Assembly (NCBI GenBank): GCA_051294375.1
Contig: JBJCIZ010000299.1
Location: forward strand, 1-13,750
DNA: 13,750 nt
From: Paraspadella gotoi
Taxonomy: Eukaryota; Animalia; Chaetognatha
Direction: 5' to 3'
Below the pieces are notes generated by a model. The model ran no database searches and was not told where the DNA came from. It saw nothing but the letters and a program-made list of their open reading frames with translations. Made by a program: the position numbers and the translations under genes. How positions within the stretch are numbered: the first letter of the stretch is position 1; the number at the start of each line of letters is the position of its first letter. Positions 1 through 13,750 of the stretch are shown one piece after another.

Positions 1-2164
1 CTGTGCAGAGCTTGATTGGCTAGAGTTATGTCAGTTTAAGTTTAAAGAATAAAGGTCTTTGCTAGGATGTAAATATGTTTAATTATGGTACAACTGGTGG
101 TGTAGATGGGTAGAATGTGGATAGAATAATTGAGTGAGGTGATTGATGATTCCTGTTCTAATGTTGTGCAACGGTCTTTTTGGTGGATTTCAATTTTGTG
201 GTTTAGAGGATACAGGTATAGGGAGCGTGGAAGCACGGGAGTAGCAGTCTTTAACGAGATATGATCACTGGTCTTATTCATCCCGGTTTTTGAGAAGAAA
301 GAGCGAAGTTGGACTGCAAGATGTGTTTAGATTATTAAATGGTGATGATAATGGATTTACTGTTTAAATGGGCTGGGGATAATGAAAGTTAGGATTGATA
401 GGAGTTTATGCCGATATGACGATAGCAGGGAAGTGGGTAAAATCACTTCTCAGCTTGTCCTGGGTAATTATGGACATAAAATGTTAAAGGTCGAATTAAA
501 GAAAAAATTAAAAATAGGTTGTGGATATTGAAATTTAATGTTTCTTTGTTACTTGATATTGAATAATATTCAACTTGTTAGGGAGAATGGGAAGATTTCA
601 GACAAGGTAAGGGTGAGTTTGAGAATATATGGGAATGGTGGAGCTGTGCAAATCTGTTTTGCGCAGTGTTACTATAGATTATGCAAGGAGAAAGAGATTG
701 AGAGAAAGTAGGATTATTAGAGGTTTGGAAAAGAGAGAAGAAAGGATAGAAAGTGAAATTCGAAATGGTAAGGGATCTATTTTAATGAGATCATTTGCTT
801 ATGTCAAAGAAAGGTTAGTAGAGGATGAAGAGAGGAAGGCAGAGGGGGCAAGGATAAGGTCTAGAGCACTCATTTTGAACCAGGGAACCAGTTTGGCATA
901 TTTTAGTAGGGTTGAAAAAATGAGATTTAATGCATAGTTTAATTTATGCATTGAAAGATAAACAGGTCAGGTTATGAAAGCGTCAAAGGGTGTCCTTTAT
1001 GTTGCTCATGAGCATTATGTTTGGAATGTTTAGTAAAGGGGATATTGATGATAATATTCAAGATGAATTTTTAAGTAAAGTGTTGAAAGGAGACTGACTG
1101 ACCAGCAAAAAGATAGGAGTGATGAATGATGAAGAAGAAGTTAGAACTGGTTCTAAGGGATGGCCTCTGGTAGTCGCCTGGGGCTGATGGTTTCCTGCAG
1201 AATTCTGGAAATGCTTTTGGGGTTCTGGTGGCAAATGACTTTATGGAGGAATTGAATGGGTTTTTGAGATTGGAAGGGTGACGAGGTCAATGTCAGAGGG
1301 AGCTGTTCGTCTTATATATAAGAAGGGTATAGAGAGGATGTCAAAAATTATAGACTGTCAGTTTATTAATGTAGATTATAAAATGATAAGTGGTTTGTAT
1401 TAATGCACGATTAGTAGAAGTTTTTACCTGGATTGGTGCATGAGGATCAGGCAGGCTTACCAGGGAGAAAAATATCAGATGTTTTGCATGTAATACAGGA
1501 TGTAATTGATTATTGTAGAATTCGAAGGAGTAGGAGGCGTTTTAGTCTTTTAGATCTTGAGAAATGTTTTGACAGGGTTGCCACAGTATGGTTTTAAAAG
1601 ATTTTAAAAAAAAATTTGGTTTTGGTAGAAAAATAATAGTTGGGTAAGGACATTCTTATAATAAGGTAACTAGTAGAAATATTAGTTAATGGGCATTGGT
1701 CGATGAGATTTTGATTGACAGGGGATTGAGACAGGGTGATTCTCTTCAATACGCTATATATTTTAGTTGCAGAGGTATTTGCAAACTCCATTAGAACAGG
1801 ATAAAATGATAGAAGGTATTAAAATTAAAAGGGCTGAAAGAAAAGTAGGGGTCTATGTCGATGACACCCAGGGTTTCCTGGGTCAGAAGCATCGGTAGAG
1901 AGGTTTATGGAAAAGGCAGTACGTTATGAAAGAGCAGCAGGGTCAAGGGTTAACAGAAGTAAGTCAGTAGGGTTGTGGTTAGGCCTTGGAAAGATAAACC
2001 TAAGGATTTCTGTGGTCTGACCTGGAAAGACATTGCAAAGGTCTTAGAATGTGGTAGGTCGAGGTGATTGATAAAAGCAAATTTTGCTGATGTTTTTAAA
2101 GTATTAAGTAAAGTTGACCCTCTGGAAAACTCGGCCATTGTCAACCTTAGGAAGGGGCAAAGGT
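1..2164 (+). mobile_element. Degenerate non-LTR retrotransposon (LINE, L1/Tx1-like), interrupted at its 3' side by the BEL/Pao LTR
   Basis: Manual translation across frameshifts gives ordered ORF2 motifs: (G)DFNF (~181-197), GLQDVFR (~311), RIDR (~391-402), GY(W)KFNVSLL-like (~523-550), KAEGARIRSRA (ORF 629-937), LIYKKG..DVKNYR..SLLNVDYKMI (~1311-1390), VHEDQAGLPGRKISD (~1436-1480), LDLEKCFDRV (~1550-1580), RGLRQGDS (~1720-1745), YVDDT (~1854-1868), LWKTRPLSTLGR (~2120-2155). The sequence is AT-rich and CpG-poor, with an abrupt composition change at ~2165. Confidence 0.9.
1..2164 (+). pseudogene. LINE ORF2 remnant (APE endonuclease C-terminal part + RT), many stops and frameshifts
   Basis: Same motifs as above. 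The only intact fragment in the ORF track is 629-937 (EN-RT linker). Confidence 0.85.
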
Positions 2165-2767
2165 TGTAGTACACTTGTGGCGTGCACGTATAGCCGCCTC
2201 TGCTTCGCCGCCGTCGCGCGCTACGGAGGAAGGTTGGTCCTCCACGTCCTCGTGAGCGTCTCCGGAAATGGGCGTGGCCGCGTCTAGCGCCGATGCGTGA
2301 GCGCCGATGACGTCGAGACGCCGTAATGACGGGAGAGTGGGTCCGAGAACGCGTGAACGGCGCGTCGTGGACCCGTGGTCTTCGAGGGTGTCGTCACTCG
2401 AGTGTGGTCCGGTAACGTGGACCACAAGTCCGTCCACAAGCTGGTGGCGGGAGCTATAGTCTGACCACGAACGCGTCCACAAGTCTATTGAAGTGTGGTC
2501 TCCGTGGGCTCTACGGCCTTGTCACTCGTCTGAGAAACGTTGACAAAGGGTGACGAAATGGTGACGTGAAGGATCCTAAACCTCGTAAAAGGCAGTTTGG
2601 TGACGGGCGGGAAAAGGTCCTAAGTAACTATGGGCCTAGTTAATCTGGTAAGAAAAGAAAGAGGAGTGTAATCTCCTAAAGAAAAGGAAAAAGACATCTA
2701 TCGGCAGAAAAGGTAATAACAAAAGGCAAACAAATAAATAGGGGGAAAAGGGGGACATATCTCTACA
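2165..2767 (-). repeat. Putative 3' LTR (~603 bp)
   Basis: Bounded by a 5-bp inverted repeat TGTAG (2165-2169) / CTACA (2763-2767). It directly follows a PPT on the minus strand, and its left edge coincides with the end of LINE homology. An alternative left edge is TG at 2176. The second LTR is not in the window, so this cannot be confirmed by direct repeat. Confidence 0.65.
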
Positions 2768-2778
2768 CCCCCACCTCC
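2768..2778 (-). promoter_or_regulatory. Polypurine tract (plus-strand primer) GGAGGTGGGGG
   Basis: The minus strand reads GGAGGTGGGGG|TGTAGAG, a G-rich tract abutting the TG of the LTR. Confidence 0.65.
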
Positions 2779-3794
2779 AGCGCTCCATCAGAGCGGTGGA
2801 ATAACTCCAACAAAGACCACTCTGATCTGGAGGGGCAGTGCAAAGTATGGCCAAGAGGAAGAGAAAAGATCAGGAAAGAAGAAGAGAAGGATCAAGAAAG
2901 AGGGAAAAAGAGGAATAAGATTGAGGGAAAAGAAACAATAAATAAAGTGTAGAAATAAAATAAAAAAAAATAAGAAAGGGGAAAGGAAAATATTGTTTTA
3001 TCCACCGCGCTTAAGCCTGTCAAAAAACCGCTTTTTCTTTTACTTTTATGTGATTGATCTTTTCTTTTTACTGCTTGATTGTCAATGATTGTATCAATAC
3101 AATAATCAAAACAACTGAAAATAATTTTCTTTCACGATAAATACATTATTCGTCGAATAAAGCCTCTTTGATCGTACACGTTAATTTTTGATAGGATAGT
3201 AATGTTTAGTTGAGATAAGCATAATGTACACAAAACGAAATAAACTAAATATTGTCGAAGATCGAACGTCAATTACTCAAACGTCGAGAGATTCGCAATA
3301 TTGACAAGTTCACTCTAAGAGGGCTACCATCGTTTCTCTGATAGTTATTAATAACGGCTAAATTTTCACATGATCCGTCGAAATGAACAAATAAACGTAT
3401 TAACTTCATGATTGACTGTTTTAACTAAACAGATTAATCTACTGGAAATCGTAAACCCAAAATATTCAATCTAAGTCAAATTTCAATGGTTACCGTTTTA
3501 ACAACACGAAAATGCTAACTTAATGAAATAAACGGACGTGAATACTAACTTAAAAAATAAACACAAATTCTGTTTNNNNNNNNNNTCTCGCGAAAATTCG
3601 GATCTTTGGTCGTGGAATGCGAAACAGTTCATATATTTAATTGAGTCCATAAGGTTTTCGAGTCCGTATGCGATTGTTCATTCTTTATGGCACGAAGCCG
3701 CCGTTGAATCAGCTTCTAAATTCTCCGACGAGCGCCACGCCGCGTCCGGCCCGCCGAAAGTCGGCGGGGGACACGGACTTCGGCGCCTCGTCCT

Positions 3795-4710
3795 TCAAAG
3801 ATCTTCGTCCATTTTCGTTGGTGGGTCGTCATCTTCGCCGAGGATTTTTCTCTCTTCTGCAGGGGTCAACTCGGGCAACGTGGGGGAGGGGGGTTGCGGC
3901 GTGGTTTCGTCGACGGAAACGAAAGACTCGTTCGCCGACGAGGCTGTGGTCTTTGGAACATCGTCGATCGAGGCCGCCATGGTCGAAGAAGTCGTCGGGC
4001 GTATCGCGGTCGACGAGGACGATGCTGAGGGACCAGGTTTCGAACCTTCAGTCGACCTTTCGTTGTAAATAACTGAGGAGGCTTTGTACTCCTCGCGACA
4101 GTCACGGTTATAGANNNNNNNNNNGTTTGGGTCTTGTTGCTTTGACGTTGAAGCCGGAAATCTTTTCGAGGAACGGAAACGGTCTTTTCCATCGAGGAAG
4201 CGCTTGTACCCGCGCCACCATTTTTCTTCGTGTCTTGACATTTGTCCGGCTCGCATTCGTCGATCTTCGTCGCGTCGATACTTTTCTAAAGCGCGTCGGT
4301 TTTCTTCTTTCGAGGGTCTTGGGGCCTTGGGCCGGACTGCTGGATAGTCCTCTCCGTCCGGCTTCTTTTTCTTCTCCTCCTCCGCTCTCCTCATCTCGGC
4401 CACTCGCCACTGCCTTGGGGTCTTGGGTTGAACGGGTGGAAACTCTTCTTCGCTTATCTTCTTATTCTTCTCCTCTTCTACTCTCCTCATCTCGGCCGCC
4501 CACTCCTCGTCTTCCCTCCTCTCCCTCTCCATCTCCTCTTCGGTCTTTGGAGTATCCGCGGTCGATGATAGACTAGTGCTGGATCCAAAGTCTCGTCTTC
4601 TTCTCTCCCTGACCTTCATCTCCAGCCAATCCGTATCGACTTGGCCGAGGAAGTAGTCGACGCCCAATTGAGGTTCGGGAGTGTCGCAGACGAGTGTTCC
4701 AGGATTGCGT
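3795..4710 (-). CDS. Accessory gene, coding exon 2 (charged, Ser/Thr/Pro-rich; unknown function)
   Basis: The ORF track's 3795-4667 has only a TTG 'start'. The frame is open up to a TTTAG acceptor at 4711-4712 preceded by a ~110-nt pyrimidine tract, and it joins exon 1 in frame. Confidence 0.7.
4318..4503 (-). repeat. Imperfect 96-bp (32-aa) coding duplication
   Basis: CTCTCCTCATCTCGGCC occurs at 4385 and 4481. Peptides: AEMRRVEEEKNKKISEEEFPPVQPKTPR / AEMRRAEEEKKKKPDGEDYPAVRPKAPR. Confidence 0.8.
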
Positions 4711-4922
4711 CTAAACGGAGAGAATTGGGAAGGAGGGGAGGGGAAAGAGGGAGAAACAGAAAATAAAGAAGAGAAAAGGGAGAGAGGGAGAAGTGAAAAG
4801 AGGGAAGAGGGAGAGAGAGAGAAANNNNNNNNNNAAAAGGATGTTAAATTAACGTTAATGAATTCGTAACGATTAAATCAGTTTTGTAGGTTTCATTTCA
4901 GGTGATTTTCATTTTAAAAAAC
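4711..4922 (-). other. Predicted GT-AG spliceosomal intron (212 nt, phase 2)
   Basis: Donor CTGAG|GTTTTT (GT at 4922-4921), AT-rich 5' part, long C/T tract (4720-4823), acceptor CTCTCCGTTTAG|A. Removing it restores one reading frame (AG+A = Arg). Confidence 0.7.
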
Positions 4923-6130
4923 CTCAGTTGGCCGGGTTCAGTTGGCGTAGTCAAATCAAACACTGGGGTCGATGTTCCTTTGGGCGAATGCATCGCGATA
5001 CGCCCCAGTATGCCGGCCGTTAAATCAGCGTCGATGGCGGTATTTCGGCGCGCCGCGCGTTCGGCCGCCTCTTCTCGTTCGACCTCATTAATCCAAGATT
5101 TGGACGTGGTCGGACGAAATCGTTCGTGCCTTGGGGTAAACTGAGGAGTGAATCCCTTTTTCGAAGTCTTTGGTATATTTGCGAGTTTAAAGGGATCGTC
5201 GTCGTTCTCGTCGTCGTTCTCGCCTTCATCCATTTTCTCTTCGATTTCTCTCACCGTCGGGAGGGGCCCGGCCGGANNNNNNNNNNAAGCAGCCACCAAA
5301 TCGGCCGGAGACGGTTGGGAGGGGCCCGCCGGATGGTGGCCGGAAGCGGCCACCAAATCAGCCGGAGGCGGTTGGGAGGGGCCCGCCGCGGGGCCAACGT
5401 TGGCCGCCGCGGCGCGCTCCTCCTTCACCTTCTTCCTGTGGTCAAGCATCCTCTGATTATGTATTGCTTGGCGTCTAATGCTCCTTCTTTTTCTCCTTCC
5501 CGAGCGAAAAGCCATCGCCGAGTTTCGGGCCGGGACCTCTCTTTCCTCCCTCTCCTCCTCAGGCTGATCCGGCTCCGCCTCCACTATCACTACTCGTCGC
5601 GCCGGTGGTTCCGGTGCCGTCGGGGTGGGTGGAGGGGGAGTCGGGACCCGAGGGGGGAGGGGGGCCGTCAAGGGGCGGGAGACGTCGGAGGGCGGGCGCC
5701 GGGAAGACGTGCCCTCCGCCGAGGTTGATGCCTCCAGGATGCGCCTGGCCTCTTCGATATTGCGGAATGATCTCGTTTGCAGCTTGGCGACTGCCGCGTC
5801 CGGAGTACTGGAAATAGAGCAAACTGGGGACCAGCTGGCTCGATCGGAAATAATGACGGATCGGGAGGAGCTGGAGTCGCGGAGTTTCCAAAGCGCCATG
5901 AGAGCGCCCTCTGGTGGTAACAGGGCGATTAGGTCGCCAGCATCCGCCCAGGAGCCTAACTGCTCCTCTGCTTCCTCTTCCGTCAACAAACTGAGTAAAG
6001 CGTAGACAGGATCTCTAAATTTGCGTTTGCCGAAAACGACCCAGGCAGCCGATGTCCCGACGACAATTGGATGGAAAGTCATGACTGTCGTCAACCGGCC
6101 GGGGTACAAAGCGGCACGTGGATTCGCCAT
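4923..6130 (-). CDS. Accessory gene, coding exon 1 (unspliced ORF 4898-6130, 410 aa); unknown function, not env-like
   Basis: Long ORF on the element's sense strand, with ATG in good context (GCAATGG). GC-rich with AT-rich flanks. About 135 aa of globular-looking N-terminus, then Pro-rich, basic (RSGRRKRRSIRRQ) and acidic segments. Confidence 0.8.
5261..5388 (-). repeat. 57-bp tandem repeat, ~2.2 copies (PAGPSQPxPADLVAASGHH)
   Basis: GAGGGGCCCG at 5261, 5319 and 5376; AAGC.GCCACCAAATC at 5287 and 5344. Confidence 0.9.
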
Positions 6131-6160
6131 TGCGTCTTGAATATTATTTAAGAAATCGCT

Positions 6161-6205
6161 CTGTAAGTACAGTGATGAATTAATTAGCGTCAGAGAAAGA
6201 AAACA
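6161..6205 (-). promoter_or_regulatory. Putative branch point + splice acceptor for a subgenomic RNA of the accessory gene
   Basis: The minus strand reads TTTTCTTTCTCTGACGCTAATTAATTCATCACTGTACTTACAG|AGCG. It contains CTGAC/CTAAT branch motifs and a TTACAG acceptor 30 nt upstream of ATG 6130, with no intervening ATG. Confidence 0.55.
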
Positions 6206-6424
6206 AGGTTATACAAAGGAATAAAAATNNNNNNNNNNTCAACAGTGTAACTATACAAAACGCTTTGGTCTTAATAAGATTCCGAAAGTCGGAACAAAGT
6301 TCGTTGAATATTTACATTAGTACATTNNNNNNNNNNTTAATTCGATAATCCTTTTTTGAATTGCGTCGACCATACTAAACGGAAATCGCCGAGTGAGTCA
6401 ACGAAAATTACATGAATCAAATAG

Positions 6425-7530
6425 TTAGTCGCACTCGAGAGGAACTAAGCGATTGCGATCTCGTTCAAAGTATTTGTCTCCTGTGGTTCGGACAGTCACG
6501 CGTCGTACGTGACTTCCGACTCCAACATCGACTACGCGTGCGAGTCTCCATTGGTCTCTCGCTTTAAGCTCATCGACCATGAGCACGATCTGGCCTTCTT
6601 TTAAGTTCTCTTGCGTGGTTGACCATTTCTGCCGTTCTTGCAGGGTAACCACGTACTCCTTTGTCCATCGATCCAAATTCGTCGCTGATTCGTCGAGCCT
6701 CTTTTCCAAGAACTTCTGAGCGCCTCGCCGTCGAGGGATTCGGGAGGTACAATGACCCTTCTTGAGGGGGCATAAACGCCGGGATACAGAAAATCTGCGG
6801 GCGTCAGCGCGTCAAGACTATCAGGATCATCTGGGACCCTCGTCAGCGGGCGTCGATTGAGAANNNNNNNNNNNNNNNNNNNNNNTGTCGTCAGTACCTC
6901 GACGTGTAATTTATCTTTTCCAAGTAGGACTGTCAGGTGTTTTTTCGTAGATTTTATCAATCTTTCCCATACGCCGCCCCAGTGGGAAGCCAGGGGTGGC
7001 GAGAAAGTCCATTCAATTCCGTATTCAATCATACTACGAGATATCTGTTCGCTTTTCCATCTTTCAACTGCCGCCCTCAGCTCCGCGTCAGCGCCGTGGA
7101 AATTGCTTCCGTTGTCGCTATAAAAGCGTTTGGAGCCCGGTCGGCGTGAATTAAATCGGACGAGGGCGTTGATGAAGGAGGAAGCCGATAAGTCGTGCAA
7201 CACTTCAAGGTGGACCGCGCGCATTTTCATGCACGTAAAGAGAACGACCCAGCGCTTCGCGCTGCCGCGTCCTCCATGTACGACACGAAATGGGCCAAAT
7301 GCATCGACGCCCGTAGCTTCAAAGGGCGCTCCTTTGTCTAGTCGATCGGCCGGTAGATCTCCCATTTTTTGAGTCGCAGGGCAACGAAAGTTTTTCTGGC
7401 AGATGACGCAACGCCGGAGCAGCAGGCGTACTACTTGCCGCATCGAAGGGAAGAAGAAACGACGTCGAATCACGGACAGTATTTGTTCCACACCCGCGTG
7501 TCCTTCCATGAAGTGTACATGACGTACGAA
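6425..7530 (-). other. Integrase (HHCC zinc finger, DDE core, BEL-type C-terminal domain)
   Basis: HFMEGHAG...CVIC; GVDAFGP; SDNGSNF; GGVWERLI; LNRRPL; LTPADFL; RWTKEYV...WRLARV. Confidence 0.93.
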
Positions 7531-10451
7531 GTCGTCGACGTTGTTATCTTTTTTCGGCAGCACAATCGGGTGGCGGACGCTGTATGGAAGATTTGCCTTT
7601 CCAATTCTACCGCCAACACGAATGACGTCTTCGTTGTCGAGGAAAGGATTCAACGAGCGGAGTTTCGATTTTTTAAGCGTTAACTCCGCGCGTGCGTCCG
7701 GTGAGCGAATGTTTTTCTCTTTAAGCTGACGATACTCGTCTGCGTAATATTTTTGTTGTAAAGCACGACAAAGCAGTTTTTCGGCATCTTTCGTATCTTT
7801 TAATGTGGTCGCATGAATTTTTTGTGGCTGAGCATTCNNNNNNNNNNTTAATGCCCGTCTCCATTCGATCCAGCGGGAAACGCATTTTTTCATTCCCGCG
7901 ATCAAATAGAGTTTTTTACGCGTATCCGACGTTTGTTTTGCAATCTGCAAAACCCAGTTTTCTTTCGATTTCTCATCATTCTCGTTCTCGATTTCTTCCG
8001 CCTCAGTCGCGAGGACGTCTGACGCTAACGGCGTCGGGGAGAGCTTCTGTTCCGGCCATTCTTCTTCCGGACGTCGGAGGAAATCAGGACCGGCGTGGAA
8101 ACGTGTCCACTTGACGTCGTCGACGGAGAGACCGCGGCTGCAGTCATCGGCGGGGTTCTCATCCGTGTGTACATATCTCCATTCGCTGACGTCTGTCAAT
8201 TCCTAATGCGAGACAAACGGTTTTTAAAAAAAGCAGCAAATTTCGATTTTCTATCAAATATTTGTTTCAATACAGTTTCTGAATCTGTCCACATGACCAC
8301 TTTTTCAAACTTGTCATTGGAGCATTCCTCGACGATAGTGTGTCGGACTTCAGCTGCAAGACAGGCCGCCGTGAGTTCCAATCGCGGGATGGAATTATGG
8401 TGTGAAGCCTTCGCCGAATCGAGGGAGTGACTCTGGCCCTGGATAAAACAAAGGCAACGTGAGATTCACCCCGTCCGGGGGTAAAGTTCGACGGTATACA
8501 GATACACCATAACCCTCATGACTAGCATCGGAAAACACGTGTAACTCAGCCTTATCGTTAGTTGTTTCCCGTGTCGCTATCCATCGTCTGATCTCGAAGT
8601 CCTTCAACTTGGGCATTTGTTCTCGCCAAGCGTCGAATTCTTTGACAATCTCGTCGGGCAGTGGGGAATCCCAATCAACCGCTGCAGCCGTAGCCCGTTG
8701 AAATAGGCTTCGGCCTTTGAGAATGAAAGGAGAAACTAGGCCTAACGGGTCAAACAGGCTCGCCGTTANNNNNNNNNNGTCGCTTCGTCAGGCACCTTTT
8801 CGCGATCTTTTCTTCATTTACGCCGAAAGAGAAGACGTCACGTTGAAACGTATAGCGTGTACCTAGTACCTTGTCAAATTGTTCGTTTTTATCGTCGTCA
8901 TCTTTGCCGTCCGTGAGTGATTTTTCTCCGNNNNNNNNNNTGTCTGGTTCGTCTTCCAACACCGCTGGCGACGAGCACTTCCATTTGGTCAGATCAAAGC
9001 CTCCCCGACGGAGAGCATCCGTCAAGCCTTCCTTCAGATCACGCGCAGACTGAACGTCCGGGGTAGATCCGAGAAAGTCATCAACGTAGAACTGGTTGAT
9101 GATGGCCTCGACCACTTCCAATGGAATCATGCCTCTCATCGACTCGGCGTGCGTCTTCAGCGTATAATTCGCGACAACTGGGGAGCTTTTCGCACCAAAG
9201 ATGTGTACCTTGAGTTCAAAAAGAGCCAGTTTAGTACAAGCGTCATCTTCAAACCACCAATATCGAAAAACGTGAACGTCATTCTCGTCTACGAATACCT
9301 GGTGGAAGAACCCGCGTATATCCGCTGAAAGGGCTATCTCATGTCGTCGAAAGCGAAGTAGAACCCCGAGCATGTTAGTCATGTAATCAGGGCCGGTAAG
9401 TAATTCATCGTTCAGGCATCTACCTCTTACGCTCGCACGGGCATCGTGGCAGATTCGTACTTTGTCCTTGTCGGGTCGAACGACGACGAGAAGGGGAAGG
9501 ATCCATTGTGGAAGTGACGCCGGTAAGTTGTCCATATCCACCTTGGTCGCGTGACCCTCTTCGACGAATTTCTTCATCTCGTCGACGACCCTCTTTTTGT
9601 CTCCCTGGCGGCGCTCAAGTTTCCTCATGAGGGAACGGAGACGGTTAAGAGCCATCGTTCCCGAGTCTCTNNNNNNNNNNATCTCAGCCGCCTTTTCTCT
9701 ACCTCGCATCCATGGGAGGCCAACAAAATAATGGCCTACTTCGTCGTCGAACTTGATTGTAGCCTTTAACTGTTCCATGGCGAATTCGTCTTCAACCGAC
9801 GGGAGTTTCTTAGTGCTCGGCNNNNNNNNNNAGTCGCGATGGAAAAGACGTCGAACGTCTTCTCTCAATCTATCCTCATCTTCTTCGACGTACTCGGCAG
9901 TCATGCGTGCGCAATTCACGTCGTCGCTGCCTTTTCCGTCTCTGGGGCCGATCAAGGTCCAGCCGAACATTGTTTTAATGGCTACCGGCTGATCTTGTGG
10001 GCCTCGTCGTACTTCTCCATCAACCCAGGTGTAGGCGTAGTTTGCCGGGAGGAGCACACAACCTCCTTGTCGGGAAGATTGGGAAACGTTACCCCTTGAG
10101 ATGAGGTTTGTCGGCCACATCTGCATCGCATGGGGGGAGGTCGTCCTCTGATGTCAGCAAACATCCCACGATCGCTTTCCTGATAGAGAGAGAAAAGGTT
10201 CCATCAAGAGGTTCAATGTTGAAATCAGCAATTTTTTTCTCTACAATGACATCGCTATCTAATGTTCTAATTCTCATTTTTACATCATCGCATATTATAC
10301 TTAGATCATTTGCAATGTTTTCTTTCAATACGCAGCGATTACAGCCGCTATCGATCATTGCGTAGGTCGTGCGTTTGCGTCCGTTCAATTCGACGACGAC
10401 CGGCACGACAGGACGGAAGGTCGCCTCGCCAGGAGCGGACGCAACTGCTAG
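6425..10451 (-). CDS. pol: Pol polyprotein (aspartic protease, RT, RNase H, integrase), ~1340 aa, split by several single-base frameshifts in this sequence
   Basis: ORF pieces 10089-10406, 8750-10126, 8395-8616, 8196-8381, 6601-8199 and 6425-6709 tile into one polyprotein ending LVPLECD*. Confidence 0.92.
8125..8770 (-). other. Pao-type connection/RNase H region
   Basis: ASLFDPLGLVSPFILKGR, WDSPLP, LHVFSDASHEGYG, SIPRLELTAA, WTDSETVL, WRYVHTDENPADDCSRG. Confidence 0.9.
8960..9520 (-). other. Reverse transcriptase core
   Basis: KVRICHDARA, CLNDELLTGPD, ALSADIRGFFHQV, HIFGAKSSP, FYVDDFL (YVDD 9077-9088), GGFDLTKW. Confidence 0.95.
10089..10451 (-). other. Aspartic protease domain
   Basis: PVVPVVVE...TYAMIDSGCNRC (DSG active site ~10344-10352), then PHLKG(V)TFP. 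Confidence 0.88.
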
Positions 10452-10454
10452 TCA
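10375..10454 (-). promoter_or_regulatory. Putative stop-codon readthrough signal: TGA-CTAG plus 3' stem-loop
   Basis: The gag stop TGA (10454-10452) is followed by CTAG and an open, in-frame path into protease. TTGCGTCCG (10444-10436) is the reverse complement of CGGACGCAA (10383-10375). Confidence 0.7.
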
Positions 10455-13400
10455 ACTATTGAACGTTCCCGCCTGTGGGGTGGGCGTCATCGCCGGCGCT
10501 GTTGCCGTCGCTGGAGCCGCGGGAACCGTTGTCGTTAATCTCGGTTGATCTGTTTCGACCCGTCCTCCTGAAGCTGTCGACGTGACGTTCGCCGTCCCAG
10601 GGTCCTGCAAAAGGGGCTGGGGTGGAGAAAAAACAGCATAGGAGGAAGGGGGAGGTTGAAAGAAGGCAGGTNNNNNNNNNNCGGGAGCGGGAGTTTGGAC
10701 ATAGACCGGCTGTGGCTGATATTGGGCCACCTGGTTAGCCGGTGTCTGTCGGCGCACCGGCGCCGCGNNNNNNNNNNTGGGATGATGATTTCCCCTGCAC
10801 AGATTACATGGTACACCACTTCTGCATCTTATCGCTAAATGATTGGGGTTCAAACATTTAAAACACAGTCTTCGGCCTGCCGCCAAGTCGGCTCTCGCCT
10901 GGATGCCGAGTGCCTGATAGCCTGGACACTCCCAGATCATGTGGGCCTGTCCGCAAAAGTGACAGTGTGGATTTGCCGGACGCGTCGGCGTTGATGAGTA
11001 CATTGGGATTCCTGGAGCATTCGTCGTCATTTGGATCTGGGTGGCAGGCGTTGCGATCGTCTGCTGTACCGGCTGCTGAATCGACTGCTGTACCGGCTGA
11101 ACGGCCGGGTAAATCGGCCGTTGGGCTGTCACATAGGCGCATCCAGCTTCTGGTGGAGGCGCCGGCGGGGCCGTCTCTGTTACACTCGTTTTTCGTTGTC
11201 TCTTCTTTTTCTTCTTTTTCTTTTGCGGCTCCGGTGTGGCGTTCTCAGCTGTATCAGATGAATCGAATGAATCTGTTACTCTTGTCTCTTTCTGTTGGGC
11301 CGCCGTGCCCCCACCGTTCGTCGACGGGGGAGGCGGGCCTGAGTTCGCCGCAACTGCCGCCACCGAGGCCGTCGTCGTCTTTTTCTTTTTATGGTAAACC
11401 GACTTCACTGCAACGAGATGAATCTTAAGAAATTCGATCAGTTGATAAAGCGTGAGTTTTCGGCCAGTTCTAAAAATCGATTGTGAATTTTCCTCTGCGA
11501 ATTTGTCTTTCCATTGAGGAAATTTAGCGTCGAGAATTTCTGATATAACCGTATCGCGATTTAAATCACGTAATCGGCCTTTTGCCTCCGCGATGCCAGC
11601 AATATTCTCTAGTCGCGTGATTGTCTCGTCGATCTCCGTCGCTTCCGTCGCCTTGCCCCCGGATAAACAATCTTTTAACATTTCGTGAGGCGAGGCGTCG
11701 GGTCGTCCGAACTCCTGATGAAGCATCGCGATGGCTTCGTCCACGGCCGCTGAATAGTCTGTGCGATGAAAGTATTTTTGTAATTTGAGTCGGGCGAGGC
11801 CGCTGAACCAGTGGCGTAGCTCCTGGTGGCGCATCTGAGGAGTAACGCCGGGCTGGGTCATCGCTGCCTCCCATTGTCTCATATGAATTTCGAAAACGAC
11901 TTTATTTGATGCTCCTTCATTCTTGAACATTTCTTCTGGACGTAAATCTTTGAGCATACGAATTGTCGNNNNNNNNNNCTGCGAATGTAGGTATTGTTGC
12001 AGTCTGTCATTTTCGGCGGGCTGGGCCTCAGGAGGCGGAGCCGCCTCCCGGGGCTCGCCCCCACCGTTTCTCTCTCGACGAAAGGCACTCAAATTCTCTT
12101 GTAATTGTCGAAGCTGTTNNNNNNNNNNCGCGATTTGAGCTTGTTGAACGTCGATCACGGGATCTCTTTCTCTCTCACGATGAGGGACGTCTCCCCGCAG
12201 GGGAGGGTCGTGGAGAGACGGAGCTGGAGGTGGATGAGGAGTGGAGTGAGGCTGCGACGGTGCCCGAGGCGGCGAGGGCGGGGTTTCCACCCTTGGGGCG
12301 GTGCTTCCGTCGCCTGGGCGGCTCATGAGCATCGTGACCATCCTCACCACCGTAGATTCGAAATTTCTTTCGTAATTTTCTCTCTCCGCGCGCCAGTTTT
12401 CTCGGTCAACTCTCCATTGTTCTCTCTCAACTTCGTGAGCAGCAACTTGCCGTTGCGCGATCGTCTCGATCGCTGATAACCTTTCGCTCAATGTTGTTAG
12501 GTTGGTCGCCGACGGGCTGTTATCGGCCGAAGGTCCAGCCCCTCCAACGTGTAAGGCGTTCAAACCCGTCGCTAGATCGGCCAGACCTCTCGGCCGAGGC
12601 GCGNNNNNNNNNNCCACCTCAGCAGGAATCGGGATAGGCGCCGGCAACGCGGGGAAGATCGGCGCCGGCCCCGAAGTGACCGTCGGCGCGATAGACGTTA
12701 CTGGGATTCGTCGGGAACGTGCATCATTCGCTAATCGGTCTGTTGCAGACTCTCTTGCAGCTCGTAGCCGTCGTCGAGCTGATTGTCTCTCCGCTGCTTG
12801 TCGCAATCGATCGTTCTCTTCTTGCAGGGCCGCTAACTCTCTCTCATAATCTTCTTCAGTGCGTGATGCTCTGAGAGTTCGGTTGTCGACGGCCCGTTGT
12901 ACCGCCTCTTCGAGAGCTCGTTGCCGTCCGTCGGCTGAGCTACCGTGAGGTGAAATTATCGTCGTAGTAGGGGCCGTATTCACGACCGTGGCGGTGACCA
13001 CGGTTGATGTCGCAGTCGCCGTCGCCACGGTAGCCATTGTTCTCATTGGTAAAGTCGCCGCCCCGGAAGTCGGGTTCCTGCGCGAGACCGGCACGAAGGC
13101 GCTGGTATAGGTCCCGTGTGGCGGCGATCGCTTGGTGAGACCCGAGGTAGGAGGAGTCATGAAGGCCGTCTGAAACAACGGGGGCGCTGTTACAGAAGAC
13201 CTCAGGCGGCGCGCTATCGGATCTTGATCATCTGCCGATGTCGTCGCCCCCCCTCCCACAGTCATTGTTGAGCGTCCGCTGCTACTCCGTCCTCTTCCCA
13301 CAACTGGCGCTGTAAGGTCAGGGGGGAGAAGGTACGGGGATCCGGCCCGGGAACCGGGACCGGATACAGGATCAGCAACGATCGTGTCATCGCATGGAAC

Positions 13401-13721
13401 CGCCAAAAGCGGCGGAAAAGGAGGGTTCTCATGGAGAATATCTCTTACCCTATCAATTTCTCGTGACAATATGTGTGTCGTTCTCAATCTGCACTCTCCC
13501 GCTAAGCGCATCGCCTCTTGTTGCTTGTTCTCCAGCGCCTCCCTCATGNNNNNNNNNNTGCGGTCCGCTGACGTGCCCGTCTCGAGAGCCCTCGCGAAAA
13601 GGCTCTGAAACGTTTGCCGAAGACATTCGAGCTGTTCGGCGAACTCGTCCGGTCCGACTCCATCTGCTCCATTCTGAGGGGCGCCGTTTATTTGAGGTGC
13701 CGATGCCATCGCGTGGACCAT
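10452..13721 (-). CDS. gag: Gag-like protein, 1089 aa
   Basis: Uninterrupted ORF with a capsid-like helical region (WEAAMTQPGVTPQMRHQELRHWFSGLA). Three knuckles at ~10770-10965: CHFCGQAHMIWEC, CFKCLNPNHLAIRC and CNLCRGNHH. Poly-Lys NLS-like KKKKKKKRQRK. Confidence 0.92.
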   Translation of the reverse strand: MVHAMASAPQINGAPQNGADGVGPDEFAEQLECLRQTFQSLFARALETGTSADRXXXXMREALENKQQEAMRLAGECRLRTTHILSREIDRVRDILHENPPFPPLLAVPCDDTIVADPVSGPGSRAGSPYLLPPDLTAPVVGRGRSSSGRSTMTVGGGATTSADDQDPIARRLRSSVTAPPLFQTAFMTPPTSGLTKRSPPHGTYTSAFVPVSRRNPTSGAATLPMRTMATVATATATSTVVTATVVNTAPTTTIISPHGSSADGRQRALEEAVQRAVDNRTLRASRTEEDYERELAALQEENDRLRQAAERQSARRRLRAARESATDRLANDARSRRIPVTSIAPTVTSGPAPIFPALPAPIPIPAEVXXXXAPRPRGLADLATGLNALHVGGAGPSADNSPSATNLTTLSERLSAIETIAQRQVAAHEVEREQWRVDRENWRAERENYERNFESTVVRMVTMLMSRPGDGSTAPRVETPPSPPRAPSQPHSTPHPPPAPSLHDPPLRGDVPHRERERDPVIDVQQAQIAXXXXQLRQLQENLSAFRRERNGGGEPREAAPPPEAQPAENDRLQQYLHSQXXXXTIRMLKDLRPEEMFKNEGASNKVVFEIHMRQWEAAMTQPGVTPQMRHQELRHWFSGLARLKLQKYFHRTDYSAAVDEAIAMLHQEFGRPDASPHEMLKDCLSGGKATEATEIDETITRLENIAGIAEAKGRLRDLNRDTVISEILDAKFPQWKDKFAEENSQSIFRTGRKLTLYQLIEFLKIHLVAVKSVYHKKKKTTTASVAAVAANSGPPPPSTNGGGTAAQQKETRVTDSFDSSDTAENATPEPQKKKKKKKRQRKTSVTETAPPAPPPEAGCAYVTAQRPIYPAVQPVQQSIQQPVQQTIATPATQIQMTTNAPGIPMYSSTPTRPANPHCHFCGQAHMIWECPGYQALGIQARADLAAGRRLCFKCLNPNHLAIRCRSGVPCNLCRGNHHPXXXXAAPVRRQTPANQVAQYQPQPVYVQTPAPXXXXPAFFQPPPSSYAVFSPPQPLLQDPGTANVTSTASGGRVETDQPRLTTTVPAAPATATAPAMTPTPQAGTFNS

Positions 13722-13750
13722 GTAAGGAGAGAAACAGATCTATTTTATAT

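Follow-up and report, generated by a model that had tools for sequence, protein, structure and literature searches.

A candidate intron-containing, non-env gene behind pol in a BEL/Pao retrotransposon of the chaetognath Paraspadella gotoi

The stretch of DNA analysed here (13,750 nucleotides from Paraspadella gotoi, called the window below) carries on its minus strand the greater part of a BEL/Pao LTR retrotransposon, the features of which are collected in Table 1. Pfam matches to PF05380 (Peptidase_A17, E 2.6e-25) and PF18701 (DUF5641, E 8.6e-18) were obtained, reverse transcriptase and integrase were also found, and the domain order of protease, then reverse transcriptase, RNase H and lastly integrase, with DUF5641 after the integrase, places the element in BEL/Pao. 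The nearest integrases are metagenome proteins with 40-54% identity. The N-terminal part of gag (11970-13739, minus strand) consists of about 590 low-complexity residues without a Pfam match. At its other end, the TGA stop of gag (10445-10460, minus strand) is directly followed by CTA G and the protease frame, both in frame with it. UGA-CUAG is a context for readthrough and, judged from sequence, Gag-Pol may be made by stop-codon readthrough; two proteins of the same integrase clade (P0128 and P0130) likewise begin at or after the protease and not in gag, and a literature search on gag-pol stop readthrough in such elements returned nothing. In this copy pol is split into six frames whereas gag and both exons described below are unbroken. 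The six-way break may represent true decay or assembly errors, between which the contigs of run X1 did not decide. The element was inserted into a decayed LINE (1-2164, plus strand) that is L1/Tx1-like by reading of its reverse transcriptase motifs and shows strong G skew. The peak of summed contig depth in X1 coincides with the putative 3' LTR, whose 3' part (2165-2560) is GC-rich, holds two sense-strand open frames of 124-147 codons and reaches a summed depth of about 400.

Table 1. Positions of the retrotransposon features in the window.
Feature	Position	Strand	Description
gag frame	10452..13739	-	1095 codons stop to stop; Cys-His knuckles near end
pol (protease, RT, Pao RNase H region, integrase, DUF5641)	6425..10451	-	six open frames in window copy
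Candidate upstream splice acceptor	6161..6250	-	AG-free pyrimidine tract ending TTACAG at 6161
Putative exon 1 of extra gene	4923..6130	-	open frame; from 6130 to 4923: globular-like residues 1-140, proline-rich linker, VVIVE + acidic motif, arginine-rich cluster, 57-base repeat, VFDLT
VVIVE + acidic motif	5593-5579	-	in exon 1
Arginine-rich cluster	from 5497	-	in exon 1
Predicted stable RNA multi-hairpin	5330..5480	-	inside exon 1; z -5.0
VFDLT motif	4963-4949	-	in exon 1
Candidate intron	4711..4922	-	212 bases; weak GT donor, AT-rich 5' half, 93% pyrimidine 3' half, TTTAG acceptor
Putative exon 2 of extra gene	3795..4710	-	open frame; from 4710 to 3795: E/R/K-rich predicted helices, 96-base repeat, S/T-rich tail
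AT-rich 3' untranslated stretch	2779..3794	-	GC-rich hairpin right after stop, z -2.85
Polypurine tract	2768..2778	-	
Putative 3' LTR (5' LTR would lie outside window)	2165..2767	-	603 bases, TGTAG...CTACA ends

The pol stop at 6425 and the polypurine tract at 2778 are separated by 3.65 kb, within which two long sense-strand frames are found. Frames as long as exon 1 occurred in none of 2000 composition-matched resamples and frames as long as exon 2 in 0.6% of 2000. The original prediction had fused the two by removing the interval 4922-4711, and its coordinates and arithmetic were correct, with 1208 and 916 nt giving 2124 nt and a single frame of 707 codons. Both sides of the interval are in phase 2. 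Its 3'-most 114 known bases are 93% pyrimidine, and the sole AG among its 202 known bases (10 bases are masked) is the terminal one, at 4711, which ranks first of the 236 sense-strand YAG sites in the element by pyrimidine content and by AG-free run alike. The AT-rich 5' half contains no AG where 3.1 would be expected (P 0.013), the deficit over the whole interval not being significant (P 0.11). GC content is 50-57% up to 4923 and 25% from 4922, so that the step falls exactly at the GT. The donor, GAG/GTTTTT, is a weak consensus match. The interval thus combines a GT donor of weak consensus, a pyrimidine tract, an AG acceptor and a kept frame, as a GT-AG intron does. Based on the phase match, the top-ranked acceptor and the GC step it looks like a spliceosomal intron, as had been proposed.

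The second frame had been described as having only a TTG at its annotated start. A TTG is present at 4667, but an in-frame ATG at 4619 opens 274 codons, and the frame could therefore also be a separate gene. Between the acceptor at 4711 and this ATG lie 30 codons of coding-like open frame, and the first frame meets its own stop seven codons into the 212-base interval. Internal repeats are spaced 57 bases apart in exon 1 and 96 bases in exon 2, both multiples of three. Other ways of joining the frames were considered. Ribosomal frameshifting in the T run near 4920 cannot connect them, since a stop closes frame 2 just before 4877. An alternative in-phase GT at 4961 is possible but sits inside GC-rich coding-like sequence, and another at 4853 lies beyond the stop of frame 1.

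Further upstream, the TTACAG at 6161 precedes the ATG of exon 1 by 30 bases and is in frame with it. Among the 236 YAG sites this candidate acceptor ranks 11th by pyrimidine content and 7th by AG-free run. As far as can be read from the bases, the layout points to an env-style spliced subgenomic mRNA, the matching donor of which would probably lie in the leader outside the window. More strong sites of a pyrimidine tract plus AG were seen on the minus strand at 2827, 2698, 2676, 2645, 10605, 10617 and 13310, in the 3' untranslated stretch, the LTR and gag; these may be extra acceptors or protein-binding tracts.

Run X1 contains the whole window, LINE flank and 212-base interval included, at flat low depth and was thus read as DNA. 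Its contigs carry the interval unspliced and without a 4710-4923 joint. Thirteen X1 contigs fell on 3780-6228, three of them near-identical and unspliced and ten less than 90% alike, and details were available for eight of the 13. The near-identical contigs cover 3780-4797 and 4835-5578 with a single 3-base gap, so the frames in this part are not assembly noise; the masked runs at 4115 and 5277 keep their length. X1 gave no cover at 5748-5993, where it is not informative, and matches at 3991-4032, 4503-4539 and 5196-5232 were set aside as low-complexity sequence. Among the diverged contigs, one (record 4) matched only 4912-4958, in 40 of 47 letters, which comprise the exon end and 11 intron bases; its seven mismatches may include the GT. 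Another (record 5) matched 5557-5725 and, by a 33-letter joint, about 6151-6183 in the upstream acceptor region, with the part between unmatched. Records 6, 7 and 8 matched 5557-5653, 5557-5605 and 6019-6084, respectively, and no short contig was linked to pol. The prediction of a non-env extra gene on the sense strand is supported, as is its membership of the element family. Diverged X1 contigs match the upstream acceptor (6161), sequence around the donor and patches of coding sequence. X2 and X3 gave short matches only, at less than 90% identity.

An alignment of copies had been suggested as a check on the frames. The gaps in the X1 contigs keep or soon restore the frame (one 3-base gap and a -1/+1 pair 13 bases apart). 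A synonymous bias was weak: 23 of 28 listed differences were scored, the five inside the -1/+1 pair being dropped, and nine were synonymous and 14 not, against an expected synonymous fraction of 0.32. For the rows assigned by depth to record 6, the closer record, five of seven were synonymous. Taken together, the sibling differences weakly suggest coding constraint. Summed contig depth in X1 was about 100 over pol vs about 12 over the extra gene, a contrast that fits fast divergence of the gene or its absence in many relatives.

To place the element, an integrase tree of 139 sequences was computed from the top 60 proteins and all loci with at least 140 aligned residues and was midpoint rooted. 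The window element falls into a clade of 17 of the 139 with support 0.99 (inner nodes are weak, 0.60-0.77), and five loci belong to this clade. Neither exon was matched in any of the 78 related loci fetched. In 14 control loci with paired LTRs among these 78, the repeat starts 28-93 bases past pol in 11 and 285-395 bases past pol in three; 12 of the 14 come from one assembly and are not independent. Within the clade, locus L051 has about 1 kb behind pol, after which come a pyrimidine tract, CAG and an ATG that opens a sense frame of 176 codons rich in R and E (1990-2520), for which no likeness to the window exons, no Pfam family and no evident membrane helix were found. L048 is near-identical to L051 and short. 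In L002 (58% identity), 1.3 kb behind pol are followed by TTACAG and, 30 bases on, by M-A-N codons as in the window. This acceptor-like site has no pyrimidine tract, and the contig ends 22 bases past the ATG; the exact pattern, which was chosen post hoc, turned up once in 20000 resamples and a looser version 225 times. L003 has its polypurine tract 25 bases past pol and no long post-pol region, while L001 is too short to judge. A long post-pol region, present in L051 and L002 vs absent from L003, is therefore a trait of part of the clade, and the 25-base gap of L003 indicates that the extra gene is not needed by every relative. A more distant BEL element (L063) carries a 633-codon sense frame (6293-8194) that starts 33 bases past pol. 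Scans for the integrase in viral and prokaryote contigs were empty.

The encoded protein has none of the env features looked for, as had been claimed: there is no membrane helix, hydropathy over 19 residues peaks at 1.47 in exon 1 and at 0.31 in exon 2, and we counted three Cys and one sequon and found no Pfam match. Its earlier description as mostly low-complexity applies to the remainder, rich in P, A, R, E and S, and not to residues 1-140, which are not low in complexity and are 32% hydrophobic. Basic clusters (RRKRR, RRRR and KKKK) are present, and arginine density peaks at residue 212 with seven Arg in 17 residues, equal to the best gag window. A leucine-rich export signal was matched once, loosely and inside the folded N-terminal part, with no clear one elsewhere. 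The protein is probably nuclear. Homology to a known env or host gene was searched for and none appeared in the exon searches, Pfam, PDB sequences or the ESM Atlas. The exon 1 search, which covered lengths of 221-704 and had the 707-residue form just outside, and the exon 2 search returned no homologue; residues 1-149 matched three of 1.84 billion representatives, all unrelated repeat proteins; and metagenome contigs likewise held no relative. Residues 1-149 were modelled from the single sequence at pLDDT 45, and the top-scoring fold found with this model (Z 5.3, rmsd 4.6, 94 aligned) is not informative. Exon 2 was modelled as separate charged helices with pTM 0.28.

Exon 1 also contains the predicted multi-hairpin at 5330-5480, whose stability was reached by none of 300 synonymous permutations. 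A fold scan of 116 windows (37 skipped for N) gave four at z of -3 or below, including one overlapping this fold at -3.5, and at the tip of the fold lies the element's only 14-base perfect palindrome (5392-5405), which could pair two RNA copies. The strongest fold of the element-wide scan (z -4.8) is at 2726-2875 on the minus strand, across the polypurine tract and the LTR start. Rfam gave no match.

Spliced non-env genes are already known in Ty3/gypsy elements. CERV of Cer1 (Ty3/gypsy, C. elegans) is a non-env protein that occupies the env slot, is made from a spliced mRNA and is required for export of the genomic RNA (PMC10309623, excerpt). Three folded domains with a cysteine loop make up CERV, of which the post-pol frame provides the C-terminal half only (PMC10309623, excerpt), whereas the protein described here is largely disordered with few Cys, starts at an ATG of its own behind pol, has a candidate intron within the post-pol part of its gene and belongs to another superfamily. 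Searches of sequence and fold databases returned no likeness to CERV or Rev, the model used having pLDDT 45. With HIV-1 Rev, the window case shares arginine-rich basic clusters and the need to export intron-keeping RNA (PMC10309623, excerpt). It differs in its 707 residues, in having no clear export signal found and in a stable RNA fold that is exonic. Rev itself is a small protein whose export signal is clear.

Extra genes of BEL/Pao elements described so far include the envelopes of Tas and Cer7 (PMC554778, excerpt) and the chuvirus glycoprotein of Anakin (PMC7642597, excerpt). Like the window element, these elements carry the extra gene internally and belong to the same superfamily; however, their genes encode membrane glycoproteins of viral origin, whereas the window protein has no membrane helix or Cys-rich part. 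Cer7 reportedly has one more small frame behind env. Non-env genes whose functions are diverse or unknown also lie between pol and LTR, as in the window element, in bdelloid LTR elements, where the ORF3s encode enzymes, coiled-coil or membrane proteins (PMC5408684, excerpt), and in plant Retand elements of the Gypsy lineage (PMC11963269, excerpt), whose frames are antisense while those of the window are sense. The word 'intron' is absent from the main text of the bdelloid paper (PMC5408684), the excerpt of PMC3118150 mentions only env as an extra gene and does not contain that word, and PMC2774666 (excerpt) and PMC6431247 added nothing on extra BEL/Pao genes. A spliced non-env gene in BEL/Pao was not found described in our literature search, older nematode Cer-element papers being outside its coverage.

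Based on position, spliced layout and basic clusters, we rank as most likely, with a probability of roughly 0.4, that the extra protein would be a CERV- or Rev-like regulator of the element's RNA which aids export of unspliced RNA from the nucleus. The mRNA for the protein would quite likely arise by splicing of the leader to the acceptor at 6161 and removal of the 212-base interval. The arginine-rich clusters might then bring the protein into the nucleus and onto element RNA, and full-length RNA with both introns would be exported for Gag-Pol synthesis and packaging, so that copies keep the intron. An element that replicates through RNA and keeps an intron must have full-length RNA that escapes splicing and is exported, and the original prediction was sound in drawing this inference; the same holds, however, for any LTR element that makes a spliced mRNA, those with env among them, and has already been described for Cer1 and CERV (PMC10309623). 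Against the export reading, no domain, clear export signal or response element supports such a role directly. The fold at 5330-5480 is exonic and thus also present in spliced RNA, so that, unlike the Rev response element, it cannot distinguish unspliced RNA. The weak donor, the lack of a 4710-4923 joint in the DNA-like run X1, the arginine density equal to that of gag and the short distance from pol to the polypurine tract in L003 also speak against this reading.

The main rival is a nuclear anti-silencing factor, whose motifs would bind SUMO-marked chromatin proteins and act as decoy or adaptor against silencing of the element. Two stretches of exon 1, VVIVE with acidic residues behind it (shuffle P 0.03) and VFDLT (P 0.0015), resemble SUMO-interacting motifs, both P values being optimistic because the patterns were picked after viewing the sequence. 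Neither pattern occurs in gag. Both motifs lie in or beside patches still matched by diverged X1 contigs (from 5557 onward in three listed records, and 4912-4958), the VVIVE core showing three synonymous changes and one Ile-Leu change across records, and the long disordered scaffold would suit a motif-based decoy. VFDLT, however, deviates from the stricter consensus, and the broad pattern was found three times vs 1.0 expected, which is no significant enrichment (P 0.08). We regard this role as possible, though on the unlikely side.

Rather unlikely in our view is an arrangement of two separate accessory genes, each served by an acceptor of its own as happens in complex retroviruses. One protein of 409 codons would be expressed via 6161 and another of 274 codons would start at the ATG at 4619 after a leader-4711 splice, the GT at 4922 being unused or minor. 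The weak donor, the stop that frame 1 meets soon after it and the ATG of frame 2 are all compatible with this arrangement, as are the acceptor-like AGs directly before an ATG in L051 and L002. Against it stand the phase match, the 30 open coding-like codons before 4619, the GC step at the GT and the match of a diverged contig across the donor. The joined product and the two-gene forms could also be present together.

We give little credence to the protein being a stand-in for env, that is, a particle or transmission protein working in the manner of small fusogens through its mildly hydrophobic residues 16-34 and a basic cluster. The gene does sit in the env slot behind an env-style acceptor, the hydropathy maximum of exon 1 falls on residues 16-34 and is followed by KRKFR, and small non-env fusogens are encoded behind pol in some insect elements (PMC11952523, excerpt). 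But residues 16-34 include His, Pro, Ser, Thr and Gly and were modelled as strands with low confidence, Gly is absent from position 2, Cys are few, and the protein is several times longer than small fusogens. It is equally improbable that the region is a passenger, a piece of host gene captured with its intron by this copy or family and without a role for the element: relatives were found nowhere and the low X1 depth suggests that many related copies may lack the gene, but both frames are intact next to a pol in six pieces, several diverged versions exist within X1, other clade members have the same layout, and searches with exon 1, exon 2 and residues 1-149 gave no host homologue.

Returning to RNA export as the preferred role, a broader and distinctly doubtful extension would be that the clade has independently become "complex", combining gag-pol stop readthrough, a multiply spliced post-pol mRNA and a rapidly diverging nuclear orphan protein, which would license export of unspliced RNA and also counter host silencing through SUMO-binding motifs. 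If true, this would be the first Rev-like system in the BEL/Pao superfamily.

In conclusion, the extra genes known from BEL/Pao elements are envelopes, and intron retention with export of unspliced RNA has few known cases among LTR elements outside retroviruses, CERV being one. If true, an orphan gene that is spliced and non-env in a clade of BEL/Pao elements would represent an independent solution in a little-studied superfamily, for which clade members with and without the post-pol region provide a natural comparison.
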